Assembly: GCA_001785615.1 (NCBI GenBank) | Contig: MFUG01000016.1 | Coordinates: 13,752-77,751, forward strand | Length of the DNA: 64,000 nt | Direction: 5' to 3' | Source of the DNA: Candidatus Nomurabacteria bacterium RIFCSPHIGHO2_02_FULL_42_19 | Lineage (GTDB): Bacteria; Patescibacteriota; Minisyncoccia; Phycocordibacterales; UBA9973 | Shown: piece after piece, positions 3,030-61,063 of the stretch | Layout: each line of letters begins with the position of its first letter | How positions within the stretch are numbered: position 1 is the stretch's first letter | The notes under the pieces: generated by a model | What the model was told of the DNA's origin: nothing | The model's input: the letters and a program-made list of their open reading frames with translations, nothing else | The model's database searches: none | Program-made: the position numbers and the translations under genes

Positions 3030-3893
3030 TCATTTTTTTAATATTCCTTCTGGCCTCACTAAAAGCACAATGATAAGAATTACGAATGGCACTGCTTGTT
3101 CCCAGCTTCCCCCAAAAAACACAACAGTTAATTTTTGCGCTATTGCTAAAATGAAAGCGCCGATAATCCCGCCCCAAAAACTTCTTATTCCGCCAAGTAC
3201 AGATATAACTATTACTGGAAGCATAAAGAGTAGTCCGGAAGCTGGTACAATACCCACATTCAATCCTTGAATTATTCCACCCAAGCCCGCAAGCGCTCCC
3301 CCAATAAAGAAAAGTTGGGAAAATATTTTTCCTTTGGGTATGCCTACGAGCTCTGCTACTTCACTATCATCTTCCACTGCCCTAATTACACGCCCAAAAT
3401 GTGTTTTGAAATAAATAAAAGCAAAAATACAGATCAGAGTAAAAATAATGATAATAGCTAATGCCTCTACTATATTTAATGTTCCGCCAAAGATATTTAA
3501 AGAATGAATATCGCTCAAACGACGCGCAATGATCGTAGCTTGGCTACCAAAAATCATACCTAACACGGAAGATGTAGCGGTTAGAAAACCAAAGGAAGCA
3601 ATCAGGAGAACGAAGTTGTTGGCTTTTCGATTGATAAGGAAACTAAAAATAAATTTATGTGATAAAAAAAGATATAACCCTGAAATAAAAAGGCTTAGAA
3701 AAATAGCGGGGATAAAAGAAATAACAAGCACGCGGTAAAATAAAAACATCATGTACCCCCCAACGAGGAACGCTCCACCATAAGCAACATTAAAAAACTT
3801 CACGCTACGTAAAATAAATCCAAAACCTATAACTAATAAAGAGTATAAAACGCCAGCATAAAGGATATATAAAATTATTTGCCAAGTTATCAT
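3030..3893 (-). CDS. livH: ABC transporter permease (LivH-like)
   Basis: Multi-TM permease adjacent to the substrate-binding protein gene. Operon order SBP-H-M-G-F. Confidence 0.7.
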   Translation of the reverse strand: MITWQIILYILYAGVLYSLLVIGFGFILRSVKFFNVAYGGAFLVGGYMMFLFYRVLVISFIPAIFLSLFISGLYLFLSHKFIFSFLINRKANNFVLLIASFGFLTATSSVLGMIFGSQATIIARRLSDIHSLNIFGGTLNIVEALAIIIIFTLICIFAFIYFKTHFGRVIRAVEDDSEVAELVGIPKGKIFSQLFFIGGALAGLGGIIQGLNVGIVPASGLLFMLPVIVISVLGGIRSFWGGIIGAFILAIAQKLTVVFFGGSWEQAVPFVILIIVLLVRPEGILKK

Positions 3894-3967
3894 CGTGTTT
3901 TGCCTGCTAATTATACAACAAAACGAGCCACATGTGGCTCGTTTTGCATACTCTAAAGCGGTAAGTA

Positions 3968-5110
3968 TTACTGAGACACTTCCGTTAGTTTTCCGCCCAA
4001 AGCTCTTTTGATAATGTAAGCCGCTGTTGTAGGATCACCATTATTATCAAACATAACTTCCGCTGAACCAACTCCGCCTGTGTATTTAATTTTGGATAAT
4101 GCATCTTTAACTGCTGTTTTACTTACTGAATCAGCTTTATTTATTGCAGCCGCCAATATTTTCAATCCATCGTAGGCATAATTAGAACAGTAAATAAGAT
4201 CATCTTTCCCAAGTTTTGCTTTCATCTTTGCCTTAAAATCTGCGCTTGAATTTGTACCAACAACAGTAAACATTGCTCCGTCGCCGAGAGTTCCTAATTC
4301 ACTCCAAATTTTTGTATCATCCCAAGCATCAGCTCCGAAAAATTGCGCCTTGATTCCGAGATCGTGTGCTTGCTTAAGACCAGCGATTGAGGGATCTGTA
4401 TAACCCGCAAAATAAACTGCATCTACATTCATTCCTTTAATCGTAGTAAGTTGTGCTTTTAAATCTTTTGACGCAGGATCAAATGAATCAGACGAAACAA
4501 TTACACCGCCTGCTTTGGTAAATGCATCAGTAAATGCCTTTTTTAAACCATCACCCCAATCATCCTTACTGGTAAGCAGGGCAACATTTTTCATACCTTT
4601 GCCCATTAAATAATTTGCTGCGTAGTTCGCTTGAAAGAAATCAGAGGGAACATTTCTAAATATATAATCTCCTGCTTGGCTGACAGTTGGGTTAGTAGAA
4701 CAATAAGAGAGCATGGGAACTTTTGCCGCTTCAGCAATAGGCGCTGCGCCAAGGGTTGCTCCTGAACATGCCGCTCCTAAAATTGCCACAACTTTATCCG
4801 TATTTATAAGTTTTGATACTGCGTTAGCTGCAGTAGCGCCACTACAACCATCATCTTCATAAATTACTTCAACATTCTTACCCAATACTCCTCCGGCATT
4901 ATTTATTTCATCAACTGCAATCGCTATAGCTGCTTGGGCATTTTGTCCGATGTTGGCTGTATCGCCAGAAAGCGGTCCCATGAAACCTATTTTCACAGTT
5001 TCAGAATCAGTGCCACTTTTCTTAGACATTGAAGATAACCCAAAAATAACAAGAACTACAACCACTATCCCCACAACAATTTTCGCTGTTTTATTCATAA
5101 ATAATAGCAA
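3968..5110 (-). CDS. ABC transporter substrate-binding protein (type I periplasmic binding fold, Liv family), N-terminal membrane anchor
   Basis: N-terminal TM segment. Motifs KIGFMGPLSGDTA..GQ and FAGYTDP are typical of LivJ/K-like binding proteins. Confidence 0.75.
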   Translation of the reverse strand: MLLFMNKTAKIVVGIVVVVLVIFGLSSMSKKSGTDSETVKIGFMGPLSGDTANIGQNAQAAIAIAVDEINNAGGVLGKNVEVIYEDDGCSGATAANAVSKLINTDKVVAILGAACSGATLGAAPIAEAAKVPMLSYCSTNPTVSQAGDYIFRNVPSDFFQANYAANYLMGKGMKNVALLTSKDDWGDGLKKAFTDAFTKAGGVIVSSDSFDPASKDLKAQLTTIKGMNVDAVYFAGYTDPSIAGLKQAHDLGIKAQFFGADAWDDTKIWSELGTLGDGAMFTVVGTNSSADFKAKMKAKLGKDDLIYCSNYAYDGLKILAAAINKADSVSKTAVKDALSKIKYTGGVGSAEVMFDNNGDPTTAAYIIKRALGGKLTEVSQ

Positions 5111-5418: not shown

Positions 5419-5493
5419 TGGTGCACGTGCCTGGACTCGAACCAGGAACCTGTCGCGTATAAGGCGAAAGCTCTACCATTGAGCTACACGTGC
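5419..5493 (-). tRNA. tRNA-Ile (anticodon UAU), CCA encoded
   Basis: Reverse complement is GCACGTG-TA-GCTC-AATGGTA-GAGC-T-TTCGC-CTTATAC-GCGAC-AGGTT-CCTGG-TTCGAGT-CCAGG-CACGTGC-ACCA. Clean 75-nt cloverleaf with a 27:43 mismatch. Central loop triplet is TAT. Confidence 0.7.
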
Positions 5494-7975: not shown

Positions 7976-8373
7976 GGGGATGCAAGGCCTAGACAGTTGG
8001 CCTCTTGCCCTTGATGCATACCGAGCATGGGCGTAATCTCGTAAAACTTCGCTCAATAGCTTAATTGCAAAATTAGCTTCCAAAGTGAAGGCAATTGCTT
8101 CTCCGTACTTCGGTATGGGTGAGTTTGCTTTCGCTCACGTTTCCGCTTCGGCTTAAGCGTGTGTCTCTCTTATTGACTTCCGATAAATAAGACGGGCATA
8201 ACATTATCGGGATAGCCCCGACGCGGCTTCGCCGTCGGGGCAAAACATAGAAGATCGATTGAAAAATATTTGGCGCGTTTCTTAATTTTTTAATTTAAAC
8301 CTGCAAGCGCGCTATGTATGTAGATTTTAAGGCAGGCACCTTCTGCACGGGGATTCGATTTCCCCCATCTCCA
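7976..8373 (+). ncRNA. ssrA: tmRNA (ssrA)
   Basis: 5' GGGGAUG pairs with 3' CAUCUCC-A, including the G3:U70 alanine identity pair. The 3' T-arm is GGGGA-TTCGATT-TCCCC. GAUGCAUACCGAG matches the conserved PK1 region (E. coli GGUGCAUGCCGAG). In-frame tag ORF GCA..GCT TAA gives AKLASKVKAIASPYFGMGEFAFAHVSASA*. Lies immediately downstream of smpB. Confidence 0.8.
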
Positions 8374-8385
8374 CAATCATTGGTA

Positions 8386-19357: not shown

Positions 19358-20041
19358 CTATGAAATAAGTGTCCCGGCAAATTTTTCTCCGTTTAGATAT
19401 TTTGCCAAGTTATCAATCGGCTTGCCGTTCATGATTACAACTTCCATACCCCCTTTCTCAGCTGTTTCGGAAGCCGTAGGGTCAAATGGAGAATTTAATC
19501 CCGAAGTCCACTCTTTTGGAATTATTTTTCGGTAGTCCGCCCAAGAAATTTTTTCAATCTTCTTTGCAGAAGGATTTGTTTTTGGGTCAGCATCATATAC
19601 GTAATCAATATTTGAAAGATTGATAATCTTTTTCGCGCCAACCGTCTTTGCCGCCAAAACGGAATCCCAATCAGTACTGTGTCCGGGTTCATAAGCAGAA
19701 CCGATTATTATTGGCTTATCGAAAGACAATTTAAGAGATAAGTTGGAAATGACTTTCCGGTTTGCGGTTTCTCCGAAAATAACACGCAGTAATTCAGCAT
19801 TTAACTTCAAAGAAGCGATGCCTATCCAGTCCAGATCTTCGCTCGTAGGAGTGGAAAGTTCCCTGGCTACTTCTTGATATTTTCTGCAGATTTTCCCCCC
19901 GCCCGTTATAATCAAGAACTTTTTTCCTTTCTCAACATGTGAAAGAATTAATTTCTTAAAATTTTTTAGAAAATCCGTATCTATGCTCTCCGGTATAATC
20001 AGCGACCCGCCCAATGAAATTACTATTATTTCTTCTTTCAT
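19358..20041 (-). CDS. pyrH: amino-acid-kinase family protein, probably archaeal-type UMP kinase
   Basis: IVISLGGSLI...ITGGG pattern, 227 aa. Sits between the adk and cmk nucleotide kinases. Confidence 0.55.
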   Translation of the reverse strand: MKEEIIVISLGGSLIIPESIDTDFLKNFKKLILSHVEKGKKFLIITGGGKICRKYQEVARELSTPTSEDLDWIGIASLKLNAELLRVIFGETANRKVISNLSLKLSFDKPIIIGSAYEPGHSTDWDSVLAAKTVGAKKIINLSNIDYVYDADPKTNPSAKKIEKISWADYRKIIPKEWTSGLNSPFDPTASETAEKGGMEVVIMNGKPIDNLAKYLNGEKFAGTLIS

Positions 20042-20690: not shown

Positions 20691-21257
20691 ATGAAAAAAC
20701 AAATCATAACCATAAGCGGGATCCCTGGTAGCGGTAAATCTAGCACCTCTGATTTAGTGGCCAAGAAACTTGGCTTCAAACGATTTTCTTCAGGAGATTT
20801 TTTTAGAGAAATCGGGTTGGAATTAGAAATTTCTATTAATGATGTTTCTAAAAGAGCTGAAATTGACCCAACGATAGACCAAAGAACAGATGCTGAAATA
20901 AAAAAGCTGGGTGGTTCTGAAAAAATTGTTATCGATTCTCGCTTGGCATTTCATTGGATACCGGAATCATTTAAGGTGTATTTGGACCTACCGCCAGAAG
21001 TGGCCAAAGGAAGAATTTTGAATAACTTAAAAGAAAATCCTTTACGCAAAGAAAGTGAAAATGCAGAAACACACGAGGAGGTTTATGAGAAAATAATCCA
21101 TCGCCTAGAAAGCGAAAAAAAGAGATACAAAGAGCTGTACGGGGTAGACCATACTAAAAAAGAAAACTTCAATTTGGTGATAGACACAAACAAAAATAAC
21201 CTGGAGCAGGTTGCGGACATCATCGTGTCAGAATATAAAAAGTGGCTAACTAAATAA
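20691..21257 (+). CDS. cmk: cytidylate kinase (archaeal/short type)
   Basis: ITISGIPGSGKSS P-loop, 188 aa. The last 13 codons lie inside a 40-bp sequence that is duplicated 684 bp downstream. Confidence 0.7.
   Translation: MKKQIITISGIPGSGKSSTSDLVAKKLGFKRFSSGDFFREIGLELEISINDVSKRAEIDPTIDQRTDAEIKKLGGSEKIVIDSRLAFHWIPESFKVYLDLPPEVAKGRILNNLKENPLRKESENAETHEEVYEKIIHRLESEKKRYKELYGVDHTKKENFNLVIDTNKNNLEQVADIIVSEYKKWLTK
21209..21248. repeat. 40-bp direct repeat, left copy (cmk 3' end)
   Basis: ggttgcggacatcatcgtgtcagaatataaaaagtggcta is identical to 21933-21972. Confidence 0.9.
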
Positions 21258-21278
21258 AGTAGCTTTTTTGAAATTCAT

Positions 21279-21310
21279 ACGTGAATTCTAGCATATGCTA
21301 GAATTCACGT
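21279..21310. repeat. 32-bp perfect palindrome acgtgaattctagcatatgctagaattcacgt
   Basis: Equals its own reverse complement. An imperfect copy lies at 21885-21915 overlapping the start of the 21352-21900 gene. Confidence 0.9.
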
Positions 21311-21351
21311 AGATACTTTTATCATTGAGTATGTAAATCTAGTGAGTAGTT

Positions 21352-21900
21352 TTAGAGACCAAAATGATCTTTTAGCTTTTTATCATCCAAAACTTTGCTT
21401 ACTTCTAAAATCTCAATGTGTTTTCGTACGCCGAAAAAGTCTGCCACAAAGAGCATCTCCCCTTCACAAGGATATGGGTATACCCAGGTGCTTTTTTGAA
21501 ATTGCATAAATCCTAAGTCCTTTAATTTCCACCTGAAGGCCTCTCGCGCTTTTTTAAATCTGATGGGCAGATCATACATCACGATACGCCATTTGCCATC
21601 CCATTTACTCTGCTCTTTTATCACAATTTCATCAATAAATATCTTGCGCAGTTTATTTTCTCCTTTTTCTGTAAGAGTATAAAAATCCTTTTGTTCTCTT
21701 TTCACACGTCTCACAAATTTATAACGCCTGAGACCACCCAAAACTCTCTGCGCTTCTTTATCGCGATATGACAATTTCTCTCCAAGAGCGATAGCGCACA
21801 AGAAACTATGCGCGAGATTCAATCCTTCCCCGCCAGCGCTAAATACTTTCTTAAGCTTAATCAAATGTTCCCGTTTAACCATATACGTGAATTCTAGCAT
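21352..21900 (-). CDS. PaaX-like regulator (wHTH N-terminus + PaaX-C/Cas2-like C-terminal domain); probable start at second Met (21882)
   Basis: C-terminal SKWDGKWRIVMYDLPIRFKKAREAFRWKLKDLGFMQFQKSTWVYP fits the PaaX C-domain / Cas2-like pattern W.G.W..v.YD.p...R...R..L...GF..lQ.SvW. N-terminal KFVRRVKREQKDFYTLTEKGENKL looks like a winged helix. First 6 codons are encoded by the palindrome itself. Confidence 0.55.
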   Translation of the reverse strand: MLEFTYMVKREHLIKLKKVFSAGGEGLNLAHSFLCAIALGEKLSYRDKEAQRVLGGLRRYKFVRRVKREQKDFYTLTEKGENKLRKIFIDEIVIKEQSKWDGKWRIVMYDLPIRFKKAREAFRWKLKDLGFMQFQKSTWVYPYPCEGEMLFVADFFGVRKHIEILEVSKVLDDKKLKDHFGL

Positions 21901-21915
21901 ATGCTAATTCTCACG
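21885..21915. promoter_or_regulatory. imperfect copy of the 32-bp palindrome overlapping the regulator gene start (candidate operator)
   Basis: acgtgaattctagcatatgcta-attctcacg differs from the perfect copy by 1 indel and 2 substitutions. Confidence 0.4.
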
Positions 21916-21932
21916 ACAAGGGTGATTAGGCG

Positions 21933-21972
21933 GGTTGCGGACATCATCGTGTCAGAATATAAAAAGTGGCTA
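21933..21972. repeat. 40-bp direct repeat, right copy
   Basis: Identical to 21209-21248. In the cmk frame it reads ..EYKKWLEN* ending on a stop overlapping the secY stop, i.e. the presumptive ancestral cmk 3' end. Confidence 0.9.
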
Positions 21973-21977
21973 GAAAA

Positions 21978-23249
21978 TTAATACTCCCGCATAGAGACCT
22001 GAGCATCTATTTTTTTGATCAGGTCTAGAACTACGGAGACGACGATGAGAAGCGCGGTGCCACCGAGCGCGATAGCGGTGATGCCGGTAACCGCGCGCAT
22101 GATGAGCGGCAGAATGGCAATGAGGCCCAAGAAAACCGCTCCGAGCATAGTGATGCGGCCCAGGACTTTGGAAATATAATCGGAAGTTGAAGCCCCCGGG
22201 CGAGTGCCTGGAATAAAGGCGCCGTTTTTCTGTAAATTTGTGGAAAGCGCTTCCGGATCAAAAGTTACGGCGGTGTAGAAATAAGTAAAGAGAAAAACCA
22301 AAATAAAATAGAGCACCGCATAGAGCACAGAGGTCTGCGAGAATGAGACCAAAACGCTGGAAATCTTGACGATAATGGGATTACTAAATTTGGCCAAAAA
22401 AGTACCAATCATCTGCGGAAAAAGCAGAATAGAAAGGGCGAAGATTATCGGGATAACTCCGGCTTGATTTACCCGCAGTGGTAAATAGGTAGAGCCACCA
22501 CCATAGATCTTAAGCCCCCTCACCCGTTTGGCATAGGTAACCGGGATAGGGCGTTCTGCTTCAGTGACGATGACTACTCCGGCGATAACGACAGCGCCCA
22601 CGGCAATGAACAAGAGCAATAAAGGAACCTGGGAAGCGTCAAAAGCAAATATAAGCTGCCCAACTTCCGCTGGAATCCCGGCGACAATACCAGCAAAAAT
22701 TATAAGGGAAACGCCGTTGCCGATACCAAACTCGGACATCAGCTCGCCAATCCACATCAGGAATATAGCCCCGGCCACGACGATAATTAAATTAGTAACT
22801 CTGTCAAAAGCGGTCAAATTCACTAAAATACTCTGGCTTTCCAAAAGAGCTAAAAGAGAAAATCCCTGAATCGCGGCCAAGGGCACTGTCAGGAGCCGGG
22901 AATATTGGGTAAATCTCTTTCGGCCGGCCTCGCCCTCTTCGTGATAAATCTTCTTTAGCGCTGGAACCATAATAGTTAAAAGCTGCATGATGATGGAGCT
23001 GGTGATGTAGGGACCGACCCCGAGCATGATGATGGAAAGATTGGAAAGTCCGCCACCGGAAAAAATATTCAAAATGCCGAAAAATTGGTTGTTGGAGAGA
23101 AATCGGTTTAAGGCAAGAGTGTCAATACCTGGGATAGGAATAGCGGCCAGCAAACGAAAAACGGCTAATGCCAAAAGGACGAAAAGGACCCTTCTGCGCA
23201 AGGTATTGTCAGTCCAGACCAATTTAACTTTATTCCAAAAATTTTGCAT
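21978..23249 (-). CDS. secY: preprotein translocase subunit SecY
   Basis: 10-TM protein of 423 aa with SecY signature regions. Position after rplO. Confidence 0.95.
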   Translation of the reverse strand: MQNFWNKVKLVWTDNTLRRRVLFVLLALAVFRLLAAIPIPGIDTLALNRFLSNNQFFGILNIFSGGGLSNLSIIMLGVGPYITSSIIMQLLTIMVPALKKIYHEEGEAGRKRFTQYSRLLTVPLAAIQGFSLLALLESQSILVNLTAFDRVTNLIIVVAGAIFLMWIGELMSEFGIGNGVSLIIFAGIVAGIPAEVGQLIFAFDASQVPLLLLFIAVGAVVIAGVVIVTEAERPIPVTYAKRVRGLKIYGGGSTYLPLRVNQAGVIPIIFALSILLFPQMIGTFLAKFSNPIIVKISSVLVSFSQTSVLYAVLYFILVFLFTYFYTAVTFDPEALSTNLQKNGAFIPGTRPGASTSDYISKVLGRITMLGAVFLGLIAILPLIMRAVTGITAIALGGTALLIVVSVVLDLIKKIDAQVSMREY

Positions 23250-24163: not shown

Positions 24164-24505
24164 TTAGAATTTCAGCCCAGCAGCCCGGGCCTCATCGGCT
24201 ACTAATTTTATACGCCCGGTATATTTGAAACCATTCCGGTCAAAGACCACTTTGTCTATTTTGGCGGTCCTGCACACCCCGGCTATCATCTTACCCACTT
24301 CTTTAGCTCGTTCAAGCTTGGTACCTTTTTTTATTTTTAGATCGCTTGCTTCCGCTAGGGTTTTCATTTTCATATCGTCAATTACCTGCGCGTAAATGAA
24401 TTTGTTGGAACGAAAAACAGAAAGACGTGGCCGCTCTTTAGTGCCGACGATCTTGGCTCGGATCTTCGCCTTTAGTCGTATTCTTTTGTCAGTTTTGTTT
24501 TGCAT
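24164..24505 (-). CDS. rplR: 50S ribosomal protein L18
   Basis: RPRLSVFRSNKFIYAQVIDD... Confidence 0.95.
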   Translation of the reverse strand: MQNKTDKRIRLKAKIRAKIVGTKERPRLSVFRSNKFIYAQVIDDMKMKTLAEASDLKIKKGTKLERAKEVGKMIAGVCRTAKIDKVVFDRNGFKYTGRIKLVADEARAAGLKF

Positions 24506-24596
24506 AAATAAATATACGAATATGCGAATTATACTAATCTGCGAATTATTCGAATGTATTTGTAAATTTGTATCATTTGTATATTCGTATGTTAAT
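24506..24596. repeat. AT-rich intergenic spacer with tacgaat / cgaattattcgaat palindromic motifs (family copy A)
   Basis: Shares atacgaatat...cgaattattcgaatNtatttgtaNatttgtat with 25131-25213. Similar motifs at 30897-30960 and 34614-34670. Confidence 0.6.
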
Positions 24597-25130
24597 CTAG
24601 GCGGTTTTCTTGCCTTGCTTGCGCCTGATTACTTCACCCTCATAACGCATGCCCTTGCCTTTATATGGCTCTGGCTTCTTTAGGGCTCGAATAGAGGCCG
24701 AAAAACTTCCTACCAATTCTTTATCCGCGCCGGTTATCGTAATATTGTTTTTATCAGCCGTGGCAGTGATTGTATCCGGAATTTTTACCACTACTGGATG
24801 GGAAAATCCTAAAGCGAAATGGAACTCTTTGCCTTTGATTTCCGACTTGAATCCGACTCCTTCCAATATCAATTTCTTTGAGTATGGTTTTTCTACGCCT
24901 TCAATCATGTTCTTGATGTGTGAAGCATAAGTGCCCCAGAGTGACTTTGAAAATTTGTCGTTTCGCTTGGGTAGGAGAGTAATTATTTTGTCAGTTATGG
25001 TGATAACGATGTCGTCTCTGAAATTTTTCGTCAGTGTTCCCTTTGGCCCGACAACAGTAAAGACCCCGCTTACCTGGCTTACTTTCACTCCCGGGGTTAT
25101 TTGTATTTCTTGTTTTCCAATTTTAGACAT
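24597..25130 (-). CDS. rplF: 50S ribosomal protein L6
   Basis: MSKIGKQEIQITPGVKVSQVSGVFTVVGPKGTL. Confidence 0.95.
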   Translation of the reverse strand: MSKIGKQEIQITPGVKVSQVSGVFTVVGPKGTLTKNFRDDIVITITDKIITLLPKRNDKFSKSLWGTYASHIKNMIEGVEKPYSKKLILEGVGFKSEIKGKEFHFALGFSHPVVVKIPDTITATADKNNITITGADKELVGSFSASIRALKKPEPYKGKGMRYEGEVIRRKQGKKTA

Positions 25131-41098: not shown

Positions 41099-41211
41099 AT
41101 AAACAAAAAGCGCTCATTGCGCTAGGAATAATATATACCAAATATCTTTTCATTGCAAACGGCTTGCTTGCGTGTTAAAAAGATAACTGAATAAAATTTT
41201 TCATCTAACTA

Positions 41212-41240
41212 CATATATGCGCGATAGCGTAAATATGTAG
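41212..41240. repeat. ~27-bp direct repeat copy 1 (exact 20-bp core cgcgatagcgtaaatatgta)
   Basis: Repeated at 41653-41680. Copies flank the 41251-41628 gene. Confidence 0.85.
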
Positions 41241-41250
41241 TTTAAGATAT

Positions 41251-41628
41251 TTAGATTATACTCTCCTTCCCTGTATAAGTTTTAGCTAATTTAAATGTTT
41301 TAAGTTGCCCCTTCAGCCCAATTTCTCTTAGATACTCTACAAATTCTTTCGGTAGCGGTGATGGTCCAACCCACACGCTTCGCTGTATCATAATGTAATC
41401 AAACTTTTTTAACTGCCTGCGAAACCAATCCCGCTCTTTTTTTCTGACATCTACGATGTCGTACATGACAATCAAGTTCTTGGGCGAATTTTTATGAAAG
41501 GGGGAAGAAAATGCTATGTGATAAAATTTTCTTTTCCGATTATTTTTCTTCACTCGACTTTTATCGGTCCAGACCGGAAGCCCAAGGGCGTTGATTCTTA
41601 TTCCTTTGTAGTAAAACTTTTTAGTCAT
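41251..41628 (-). CDS. Cas2/PaaX-C-like domain protein (125 aa), paralogous to the C-terminal domain of the 21352-21900 product
   Basis: NLIVMYDIVDVRKKERDWFRRQLKKFDYIMIQRSVWVGPSP versus RIVMYDLPIRFKKAREAFRWKLKDLGFMQFQKSTWVYPYP: the shared pattern is hVMYD-X6/7-R-X2-FR-X2-LK-X7-Q[KR]S[TV]WV-X-P. Confidence 0.5.
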   Translation of the reverse strand: MTKKFYYKGIRINALGLPVWTDKSRVKKNNRKRKFYHIAFSSPFHKNSPKNLIVMYDIVDVRKKERDWFRRQLKKFDYIMIQRSVWVGPSPLPKEFVEYLREIGLKGQLKTFKLAKTYTGKESII

Positions 41629-41652
41629 TAATGTAATTATACCCCAAAATAC

Positions 41653-41680
41653 ACATATACGCGATAGCGTAAATATGTAA
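41653..41680. repeat. ~27-bp direct repeat copy 2
   Basis: See 41212-41240. Confidence 0.85.
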
Positions 41681-49674: not shown

Positions 49675-49713
49675 GTTTATTTCAATTTGTAATTAATAAC
49701 TAATAACTTAAAA

Positions 49714-50259
49714 CTAGATTTTCTTCACCTGAAGAAAATCTAGCTCCACCGGGGTCTCGCGACCGAACATGGAAACCAGTACTTTTACCTTCCCGCGCTC
49801 TTGATCAACTGAATTTACTTTACCTTCCAGGTCTTTGAATGGGCCGTCTATTATCAAAACCGTCTCTCCCACAGCAAGGTCAATATTGTGCTTGGTCGTA
49901 CCAGCATCCATCTTTTTGAAAAGAAATTCTACTTCTTCTTTTTTGAGAGGAACGGGGTTTACCCCAGCGCCCACAAAACCGGTAACCCGGGGAGTATTTC
50001 TAACCACGTACCAAGAATCATCGGTAACCACCATGTCTACCAACACATAGCCGGGATAAATTTTTTCCTCCACTTCCACGCGCTTACCTCCCTTAATTTT
50101 TATTTTTTTTTCAACCGGCACAATGACGTTGAATATTTTTTCATTCATGCTGAGCGAATCAATACGCTGTTTTAAGTTGCGTAGCACCACGTTTTCATAT
50201 CCGGCGTAAGTATGTATCGCATACCAACTTCTAACTCCTTGTGTTTCCTGTTTGGACAT
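49714..50259 (-). CDS. nusG: transcription antitermination factor NusG
   Basis: SWYAIHTYAGYE NGN domain plus C-terminal KOW (GETVLIIDGPFKDLEGKV). Confidence 0.9.
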   Translation of the reverse strand: MSKQETQGVRSWYAIHTYAGYENVVLRNLKQRIDSLSMNEKIFNVIVPVEKKIKIKGGKRVEVEEKIYPGYVLVDMVVTDDSWYVVRNTPRVTGFVGAGVNPVPLKKEEVEFLFKKMDAGTTKHNIDLAVGETVLIIDGPFKDLEGKVNSVDQERGKVKVLVSMFGRETPVELDFLQVKKI

Positions 50260-54630: not shown

Positions 54631-54704
54631 TGGGTGCCCGGAGAGAATTGAACTCTCGATATCGGCTCCACAAGCCGAAGTTTTACCACTAAACTACGGG
54701 CACC
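54631..54704 (-). tRNA. tRNA-His (anticodon GUG) with encoded G-1
   Basis: Reverse complement G-GTGCCCG-TA-GTTT-AGTGGTA-AAAC-T-TCGGC-TTGTGGA-GCCGA-TATC-GAGAG-TTCAATT-CTCTC-CGGGCAC-C. The extra 5' G opposite C73 is the His hallmark. Confidence 0.8.
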
Positions 54705-57136: not shown

Positions 57137-57200
57137 TTTTTTGCAATTTCCTCACCCCTGCTGCGCTTCCCCTCTCCATTTATAAATGGAGAGGGGCTAG
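57137..57200. other. nested GC hairpin (cctcaccc..cctctccattt ataa aaatggagagg..ggtgagg) between rplS and the Cys-rich gene
   Basis: Two concentric inverted repeats. No adjacent T-run, so not a canonical terminator. Confidence 0.5.
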
Positions 57201-60836: not shown

Positions 60837-60908
60837 TGCCCCCGGCAAGAATCGAACTTGCATTATCGGCTTAGAAGTCCGAAGTTCTGTCCATTGAACT
60901 ACGGGGGC
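60837..60908 (-). tRNA. tRNA-Arg (anticodon UCU), CCA not encoded
   Basis: Reverse complement GCCCCCG-TA-GTTC-AATGGACA-GAAC-T-TCGGA-CTTCTAA-GCCGA-TAAT-GCAAG-TTCGATT-CTTGC-CGGGGGC-A. One A:G mismatch at 31:39. Confidence 0.65.
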
Positions 60909-60965: not shown

Positions 60966-61041
60966 CTGGTGCGGGATGCAGGGCTTGAACCTGCGACCTT
61001 CGCTGTGTAAAAGCGCTGCTCTACCAACTGAGCTAATCCCG
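60966..61041 (-). tRNA. tRNA-Val (anticodon UAC), CCA encoded
   Basis: Reverse complement GCGGGAT-TA-GCTC-AGTTGGTA-GAGC-A-GCGCT-TTTACAC-AGCGA-AGGTC-GCAGG-TTCAAGC-CCTGC-ATCCCGC-A-CCA. Confidence 0.8.
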
Positions 61042-61063
61042 CATACCATTAAAATTAACACTT

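Follow-up and report, generated by a model that had tools for sequence, protein, structure and literature searches.

A predicted self-repressed mini-PaaX cassette with paired palindromes at a cmk/secY junction in Nomurabacteria, and how it may have arrived there

Why should the last 40 nucleotides of a nucleotide kinase gene occur twice, with another gene between the two copies, at the end of a ribosomal protein operon? The question is raised by the junction of cmk and secY in a 64-kb stretch of contig MFUG01000016.1 from Candidatus Nomurabacteria bacterium RIFCSPHIGHO2_02_FULL_42_19 (the window, to the whole of which the coordinates refer). The 684 bp that separate the copies comprise one gene, encoding a small relative of the repressor PaaX, and two copies of a palindrome of 34-36 nt. 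We hold it moderately probable that this segment is a self-contained, self-repressed 'mini-PaaX' cassette, which entered the cmk/secY junction by homology-assisted recombination.

The direct repeat is exact, as the initial annotation of this DNA had described: 21209-21248 and 21933-21972 are identical at 40 of 40 positions with a start-to-start distance of 724 bp, and a looser similarity (52 nt at 90%) extends around it, between 21206-21257 and 21930-21981. Read in the frame of cmk, the right copy gives ...VADIIVSEYKKWLEN, as part of a relic that ends ...KKWLEN and whose TAA (21979-21981) overlaps the secY stop codon (21978-21980, minus strand). The functional cmk takes its last two codons and stop (ACT AAA TAA, TK*) from the inserted DNA, and ends LTK*, in contrast to the ...EN* of junctions where no cassette is present. 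The latter were found by comparing the cmk-secY region with that of related genomes, as had been suggested at the outset. A metagenome scan with the C-terminal peptide of cmk returned 21 related loci. In at least 12 of these cmk and secY abut; cmk there ends ...EYKKW(I)EN*, and its TAA shares bases with the stop codon of secY (ATAGAGAATTAATATTCTCGCAT in locus L102; likewise L088, L090 and L095). The right copy in the window (...CTAGAAAATTAATACTCCCGCAT) has the same arrangement as these empty junctions while the functional cmk ends differently, and for this reason the immediate ancestor can be taken to have had abutting cmk and secY genes with overlapping stop codons, into which 684 bp entered, leaving the old cmk end behind as a relic. 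The earlier proposal that the right copy is the ancestral end of cmk is thereby borne out. Since the 684 bp are an insertion relative to the empty state, a pure slippage duplication, one of the two origins first offered for the structure, is rejected.

The arrangement is not an assembly artefact, because it is shared, at 99.8% identity or more, by 20 independent metagenome contigs that come from several samples and assemblers. All of these 20 contigs with identical secY or cmk are occupied, no strain showing an empty allele, and six of them carry a synonymous single-nucleotide polymorphism (21236 T>C) in the left repeat copy only; thus the insertion predates the divergence of the strains and the two repeat copies are not being homogenised. 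On the scale of genus-level divergence the insertion is recent, since the relic, which is non-coding, still matches the left copy at 40 of 40 positions. In sequencing reads, an empty site would have the junction signature CTGGAGCAGGTTGCGGAC...GTGGCTAGAAAATTAATACTCC, and a circle or tandem form GATTAGGCGGGTTGCGGAC...GTGGCTAACTAAATAAAG.

The gene is not a newcomer at this locus, even though it was inserted in the lineage of the window. Orthologs with 57-73% identity lie between secY and cmk in 13 of 16 genomes, and of the related genomes at least 16 have a cassette in the junction and at least 12 do not. Occupied and empty states are interleaved on a poorly resolved secY tree, and cassette distances show no correlation with those of secY (r = 0.11, Mantel p = 0.28); the tree is star-like and too weak to separate gains from losses. 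Among the occupied junctions only that in the window has a remnant of the cmk end, the matches in L103 and L024 being weak and unconvincing. Between secY and cmk there seems to be a hotspot at which genes are added. Locus L015 has a third, solo cassette palindrome (2189-2224 of that locus) 27 nt after the secY stop and 1.8 kb upstream of the cassette, with a TrmB-like regulator gene and open reading frames (ORFs) of no assigned function between the two; L017 and L021 have similar extra genes in the interval, and L008 an extra ORF of 241 residues.

What, then, does the inserted gene encode? The ORF first reported, 21352-21900 with 182 residues, is present, but the coding sequence is probably 21352-21882, with 176 residues. 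Its start, M7, is that used by most of the orthologs in an alignment of 23 and by most gene callers, and callers on other contigs give 176 residues; residue numbers here follow the 182-residue ORF. The description of the protein as a winged helix followed by a Cas2-like domain finds support in structural comparison, its assignment to PaaX_C does not. The domain detected by profile searches is PF20803 (PaaX_M, the central, Cas2-like domain of PaaX) at residues 98-170, with an E value of 2.5e-19 and 69.6 bits against a cut-off of 24. PaaX_C (PF08223) gave no match at E<=0.1, the protein stopping after the Cas2-like domain, and the PaaX equivalog TIGR02277 scored 33.6 bits against a cut-off of 264.55. 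With the Cas2 model TIGR01573 the 182-residue protein scored 19.1 bits, below the cut-off of 24.5; weak matches to Cas2 models recur, in keeping with the PF20803 assignment. The predicted N-terminal winged helix (residues ~10-90) was not matched by PF07848 and reached only 0.055 with HTH_45; it is seen in the AlphaFold2 model, as three helices and two strands, and in 162 columns aligned to PaaX.

The model, which has a moderate predicted local distance difference score (66.7), shows three helices with a β-hairpin wing, then a βαββαβ fold at residues 105-166. The best PDB matches identified by Foldseek were E. coli PaaX (8a39) at the top, followed by Rv0674, 3l09, VapD and a series of Cas2 structures; a PDB sequence search with the family profile gave nothing at E<=0.1, PaaX and Cas2 being found by fold comparison only. 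Y109-D110 is invariant in the 23 orthologs, D110 being the aspartate at the end of β1, i.e. the catalytic position of Cas2. Neither in the protein nor next to it did profile searches reveal a transposase or recombinase domain (Cas1, HUH, DDE, tyrosine- or serine-recombinase), and there are no paa genes among the neighbours (secY, cmk, adk, map) or in any related locus. Modelling thus describes a putative DNA-binding protein, composed of a predicted winged helix and a Cas2-like domain without the effector-binding domain of PaaX.

The cassette gene and cmk are convergent, with the downstream palindrome (P2) between them; the upstream palindrome (P1) overlies the 5' end of the 182-residue ORF. 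Both had been recognised earlier with slightly different limits: P2 is indeed a perfect palindrome, its extent being 34 nt (21278-21311) rather than 32, and P1 is indeed imperfect, extending over 21883-21915 or 21883-21918 rather than 21885-21915. The 18-nt half-site GTGAATTCTAGCATATGC has three occurrences in 64 kb, where 0.04 are expected, all of them within P1 and P2. There are only five long palindromes in the window, all different in sequence, and none in shuffled sequence; three are unrelated to the cassette, single-copy and with 14-16-nt arms (3918-3947, 49712-49745 and 57168-57197). A generic repetitive extragenic palindromic element is ruled out, since the half-site is confined to two sites and the palindromes occur only beside the cassette gene, a possibility that the initial annotation had likewise set apart from its own interpretation. 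The palindromes evidently travel with the gene, because they are missing from all 18 related loci without it.

A promoter scan places TTGTCG-17-TGcTAGAAT at 21919-21891, largely superimposed on P1. The -35 element (TTGTCG, 21919-21914) belongs to the outer left arm and overshoots the 36-mer by one base; after a 17-nt spacer the extended -10 element (TGcTAGAAT, hexamer 21896-21891) stands directly after the core, with 8 nt between the end of the hexamer and the ATG at 21882. Because the predicted promoter is wholly inside the palindrome and the ATG so close to the -10, a leaderless mRNA is probable. Each palindrome folds into a strong hairpin; P2 has a terminator-like score on the plus strand, and its RNA hairpin is calculated at -24 to -26 kcal/mol for either strand (z about -5.8).

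The layout is general. Relatives were collected at 74 loci from species-representative genomes of Nomura-, Moranii-, Staskawicz-, Giovannoni-, Terry- and Colwellbacteria, Spechtbacterales and others, and in nearly all 74 the gene is accompanied by two palindromes of 30-40 nt, one ending at the start codon and the other beginning a few bases after the stop, most frequently 9 nt; about 75 cassettes with this layout are spread over many Patescibacteria lineages. In the closer subfamilies a palindrome with the core GCATATGC is present on both flanks in 53 of 56 cassettes. The upstream core is directly followed by TAnnnT (TAGAAT, TATAAT or TAAAAT) in 52 of these 53, so that its final TGC becomes part of an extended -10 element; an in-frame ATG lies 7-10 nt after the hexamer in 39, and the outer left arm (tTGTnG) is 17 nt upstream of the -10 across cassettes. 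In subfamilies further removed, the layout is the same but built around other cores (CACGATCGTG, GCGATAGC). Arms agree at 20.7 of 28 positions within one cassette, compared with 14.5 of 28 between cassettes. Since arm mismatches have no bias towards G-U over A-C (44 vs 33 in P2, 41 vs 45 in P1), the symmetry seems to be a property of the DNA and selection for an RNA hairpin is not supported. The proposal that the palindrome pair is a target-site duplication of an earlier palindrome, in the manner of a CRISPR repeat, was also rejected, as empty sites have no solo palindrome and the copies are often inverted rather than direct. In one cassette (L066, 3609-3740 and 4470-4582) the operator-like repeat occurs in tandem pairs, two upstream and two downstream, i.e. 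four in total. The family is large, with 408 close homologs and, clustered at 50% identity, 3685 clusters at E<=1e-3 or 2087 at E<=1e-10.

A paralogous cassette in the str operon of the window encodes a Cas2-like protein of 125 residues. This matches PaaX_M (5.5e-11) and CRISPR_Cas2 (1.2e-6), just passes the Cas2 cut-offs (25.0 bits with TIGR01573, cut-off 24.5; 29.1 bits with PF09827, cut-off 23.8) and is 100% identical to a deposited Nomurabacteria protein. It is flanked by near-palindromes of ~30 nt (41210-41239 and 41650-41679, core GCGATAGC), with a TATAAT box (41641-41636) 7 nt before the ATG. Public records often name the 125-residue family 'CRISPR-associated endonuclease Cas2'; there is no CRISPR repeat array in the 64 kb. 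The paralog had been cited as an argument for a mobile gene family. Its relatives (~70% identity) have the same layout and occupy the same position, S7 - gene - EF-G, in three diverged genomes, so it is not evidence of recent movement and is instead a long-term resident.

Other paralog lineages also have conserved positions, between secY and cmk, in the order trmD-cassette-rpoB, or after a ychF-like GTPase gene. Each paralog has its own palindrome, distinct from those of the others, and paralogs within one genome are at most 75% identical, including the eight copies in one genome. No recombinase was found in or next to the insert, which has no second gene, and the neighbours are housekeeping or TrmB-like regulator genes; no relatives were found in viral contigs, and a viral origin was rejected on this ground. 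The family behaves mostly as a resident. The other origin first offered for the structure at cmk, a site-specifically inserted miniature element, is correct as to the insertion; the site-specific mobility is possible but unproven.

How might such a cassette be controlled? On the simplest reading, by analogy with PaaX, a DNA-binding protein with two operators represses its own gene. Self-regulation, which the initial annotation had proposed, is well supported by the anatomy, since 52 of 53 cassettes have the predicted promoter within the upstream palindrome. PaaX acts on its own promoter as a repressor that keeps RNA polymerase off the DNA; its middle domain is the dimerisation motif, while its C-terminal domain binds phenylacetyl-CoA (PMC9493321). 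A dimer or tetramer of the cassette protein on P1 would work in the manner of PaaX, denying RNA polymerase access and thereby repressing the cassette gene. P2 would be a second, more symmetric operator, and its hairpin, located between the convergent cassette and cmk, may insulate or terminate transcription. A correspondence between recognition-helix residues and arm sequence (GTGAA vs GTTAA) is suggestive only, with several mixed cases.

How the cassette reached the junction can be approached through other duplicated gene ends. A scan for direct repeats covered the outer flanks of 74 cassettes (the repeat in the window having been established separately) and revealed two further cassettes with a duplicated gene end, giving three of ~76 in total; none was detected around the ~73 others. 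In L077 the last 43 nt of uvrA, including the stop, are repeated after the cassette (3645-3687 and 4513-4555; 37 of 43 identical), and in L056 ~78 nt of the 3' end of trmD are repeated likewise (~3876-3955 and ~4657-4733; 58 of 79 identical, with two gaps). Several of the differences between the trmD copies are synonymous, a hint that the copies may derive from different alleles. Because the repeats differ in length, at 40 (cmk), 43 (uvrA) and ~78 nt (trmD), an enzyme with a fixed stagger is not indicated; the variation suits recombination guided by homology to the end of the gene. In the window, the cassette came with at most 29 nt of flank on either side, gave cmk its new end and left a relic of 49 nt beside secY.

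Homology-assisted recombination is favoured over transposition by these sequence comparisons. The most likely route of entry would be recombination with DNA of a related genome that already carried the cassette beside cmk; in this, a circular fragment may have integrated through cmk homology, or recombination may have been anchored by one-sided homology. Selection would keep those outcomes that preserve both neighbours and, since the stop codons of cmk and secY overlapped, a duplication would be the only outcome to leave both essential genes intact.

Several observations sit uneasily with this combination of self-repression and homology-assisted entry, in which DNA binding, repression and the transcription start are all deduced from sequence anatomy. 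The Cas2-like half of the protein is ~85% conserved, more so than the winged helix, and retains the β1 aspartate of Cas2, which suggests a function beyond dimerisation. The 125-residue family has the same paired palindromes and no winged helix, and thus the winged helix is no more than a candidate for the domain that reads the palindromes. A -10-like hexamer in the downstream copy points into the gene in 25 of 53 cassettes and outward in 4, the two palindromes thus being true inverted repeats, which a simple two-operator model does not predict. With regard to entry, the inserted DNA ends 6-37 nt from the palindromes in all three repeat cases, a narrower margin than is expected of recombination with random breakpoints. 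The closest donor sequence found has 74% protein identity, and the proposed route does not explain how the first duplication arose.

The tight boundaries and the inverted palindromes together leave room for a role of the palindromes in movement. It may be that the cassette is a minimal mobile or selfish element, in which the palindromes act as terminal inverted repeats and the nuclease-type domain promotes its excision and its integration where essential genes end, producing long duplications of the target. Consistent with this proposal, P2 approximates the reverse complement of P1 with its -10-like halves facing inward more often than outward, gene and palindromes are always gained or lost together, the occupied and empty states of the junction are interleaved on the poorly resolved secY tree with cassette and secY distances uncorrelated, and three independent cassettes have duplicated gene 3' ends with little extra flank; the invariant D110 and the mutually distinct palindromes of the paralogs, as often seen in selfish modules, point the same way. 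We nonetheless think it unlikely. The duplication lengths are unlike those of a ruler-type integrase or transposase, and flanking repeats accompany only three of ~76 cassettes; moreover, each paralog lineage has one conserved genomic position across genera, no two copies in a genome exceed 75% identity, and neither a recombinase domain of the types sought, in the protein or adjoining, nor a copy in viral contigs was found. The far-reaching form of this proposal is a long shot, namely that the cassettes are unrecognised minimal selfish elements of Patescibacteria, each a solo Cas2-family protein with its own DNA-targeting domain and ~36-nt palindromic inverted repeats, that moves, or once moved, into essential genes at their 3' ends and duplicates long stretches of the target. 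Such elements would be a Cas1-independent relative of the machinery behind CRISPR adaptation modules.

The Cas2/VapD-like domain might instead be a ribonuclease or toxin, with the palindromes being bound or cleaved as RNA hairpins; the protein might then free its own leaderless mRNA from operon read-through, or form a one-gene addiction module with an antisense RNA from P2. The domain is the only part common to the winged-helix and 125-residue families, all of which have paired palindromes, conservation is highest there and includes the Y-D motif, and VapD and Cas2 are among its structural matches. Both palindromes fold as strong hairpins, the inward -10-like hexamer of the 25 downstream copies could yield an antisense RNA, and cassettes lie within highly transcribed ribosomal operons. 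Such activity, however, is purely hypothetical here, and the details of the palindromes speak for DNA: G-U pairs are not in excess over A-C mismatches in the arms, the upstream copy sacrifices symmetry for a consensus -10 box in 52 of 53 cassettes, and the invariant 8-bp core is unnecessary for a hairpin. Taking both modes together, we regard a role of this kind as improbable. Least probable is a history with no insertion, in which the cassette was always at the locus and local slippage or template switching duplicated the cmk end. The orthologs in the same interval of 13 of 16 related genomes and the occupied state of all 20 population contigs would be expected in that case, but the right copy continues with GAAAATTAA to ...LEN* and a stop overlapping that of secY, the exact empty-junction arrangement of at least 6 related genomes, which local copying would not rebuild; the other occupied loci, furthermore, have no such copy.

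Comparison with known systems helps to place the cassette as we favour it, a self-repressed unit that arrived by recombination. PaaX of E. coli W (8a39), a GntR-type repressor of phenylacetate catabolism with the domains PF07848, PF20803 and PF08223, has a winged helix followed by a Cas2-like central domain, the order that is predicted for the cassette protein, and is the best structural match of that protein; its half-site TGATTC/GAATCA resembles the arms TGAATTC/GAATTCA in the window, though as a lead only. PaaX is longer, however (~305 residues, compared with ~176), has the effector domain PaaX_C that the cassette protein lacks, and its half-sites are 27 bp apart, whereas the cassette has one compact 36-bp palindrome in two copies that bracket the gene. 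With Cas2 and VapD, which are ferredoxin-fold nucleases, the cassette protein shares the βαββαβ fold (~3 Å root-mean-square deviation over ~70 residues to several Cas2 structures), and with Cas2 the conserved aspartate at the end of β1. Unlike Cas2, it is fused to a predicted DNA-binding domain, has a predicted promoter/operator of its own and sits in ribosomal protein operons; no Cas1 or other cas family was present among the called neighbours in more than 20 loci.

Like an insertion sequence or transposon, the cassette has palindromes of ~36 nt at both ends, the downstream one being approximately the reverse complement of the upstream one; by contrast with such elements, it has no fixed duplication length, recognisable transposase or near-identical copies. 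The integrative elements that use attachment sites in tRNA or tmRNA genes offer another parallel, in that a direct repeat with the 3' end of the target gene (here cmk, uvrA or trmD) is formed, the insert supplies a new end and the old end is left as a relic, but the insert here is only 684 bp, has no integrase, and is in protein-coding targets with repeats of varying length. Lrp/AsnC-type regulators, which have a helix-turn-helix and a ferredoxin-fold RAM domain, follow the same logic of a DNA-binding domain joined to a small βαββαβ oligomerisation domain. They too act on palindromic sites to repress the genes that encode them. A relationship to Lrp/AsnC was not detected, either in sequence or at the level of family, the ferredoxin-fold domain of the cassette belonging to the Cas2/PaaX_M lineage.

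Table 1. Positions of the cassette, the rearranged junction and the str-operon paralog in the window.
Feature	Position	Strand	Basis
Downstream palindrome P2 (34 nt without mismatch, core GCATATGC), a proposed second operator and hairpin terminator for both directions	21278..21311	.	
Upstream palindrome P1, imperfect copy of P2; proposed operator	21883..21918	-	Promoter scan
Cassette gene, 176 residues from M7 (182 residues if start at 21900)	21352..21882	-	PF20803 2.5e-19; ortholog starts
cmk-like nucleotide kinase, 188 residues, functional gene	20691..21257	+	Pfam Cytidylate_kin2 2.6e-12 and AAA_18
Left copy of the 40-nt repeat, within the cmk coding sequence	21209..21248	+	
Inserted segment, 684 bp, cassette with 29 nt and 14 nt of flank	21249..21932	.	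Bounded by the 40-nt repeat; missing from at least 12 empty junctions
Ancestral cmk 3' end, left as a relic; right repeat copy (21933-21972) and GAAAATTAA	21933..21981	+	Matches empty-site configuration
secY, which closes the spc-type ribosomal protein operon ahead of the insertion	21978..23249	-	ORF list; SecY Pfam in related loci
Paralogous cassette in the str operon	41210..41679	-	125-residue Cas2-like gene 41251-41628 without winged helix

The surroundings of the cassette have some features of their own. The cmk-like kinase gene is in reverse orientation between secY and adk, as is conserved in related genomes, and a gene of the amino-acid-kinase family (227 residues, 19358-20041), also conserved in relatives, separates adk from map in the tail of the ribosomal operon; together the two form an unusual extension of the secY-adk-map block. 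Further into the operon, the 92-nt L18/L6 spacer (24505-24597) contains 17-nt tandem repeats (TATACGAATATGCGAAT, 2.5 copies) and has inverted ends (ATACGAATAT...ATATTCGTAT), making it an unusual structured spacer for a ribosomal protein operon. Elsewhere in the window are a tmRNA gene at 7976-8376 (Rfam RF00023, 108.6 bits) and four tRNA genes (5422-5493, 54633-54703, 60837-60908 and 60970-61042).

The family to which the cassette belongs is highly conserved as well as large, is present several times over in the very small genomes of its hosts, and is labelled inconsistently in databases, as 'PaaX', 'Cas2' or 'hypothetical'. A description of the cassette family was not found in the literature searched, which returned only a background review of PaaX. 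On the present analysis the cassette appears to be a new variant of the PaaX-type self-repressor, packaged as a closed unit. One consequence is a correction of annotation, in that such genes are neither phenylacetate regulators nor CRISPR components. Every copy being a closed unit, of promoter palindrome, leaderless gene and second palindrome, the family also offers a hypothesis of self-repression for which the operator can be read from the sequence. The filled and empty junctions, together with the three duplicated gene ends, show one way in which gene-dense genomes gain genes, by duplicating the end of a gene where essential neighbours overlap. If it were true that the protein acts on its own palindromes, the cassettes would represent a new kind of mobile element, with a bearing on the origin of Cas2.

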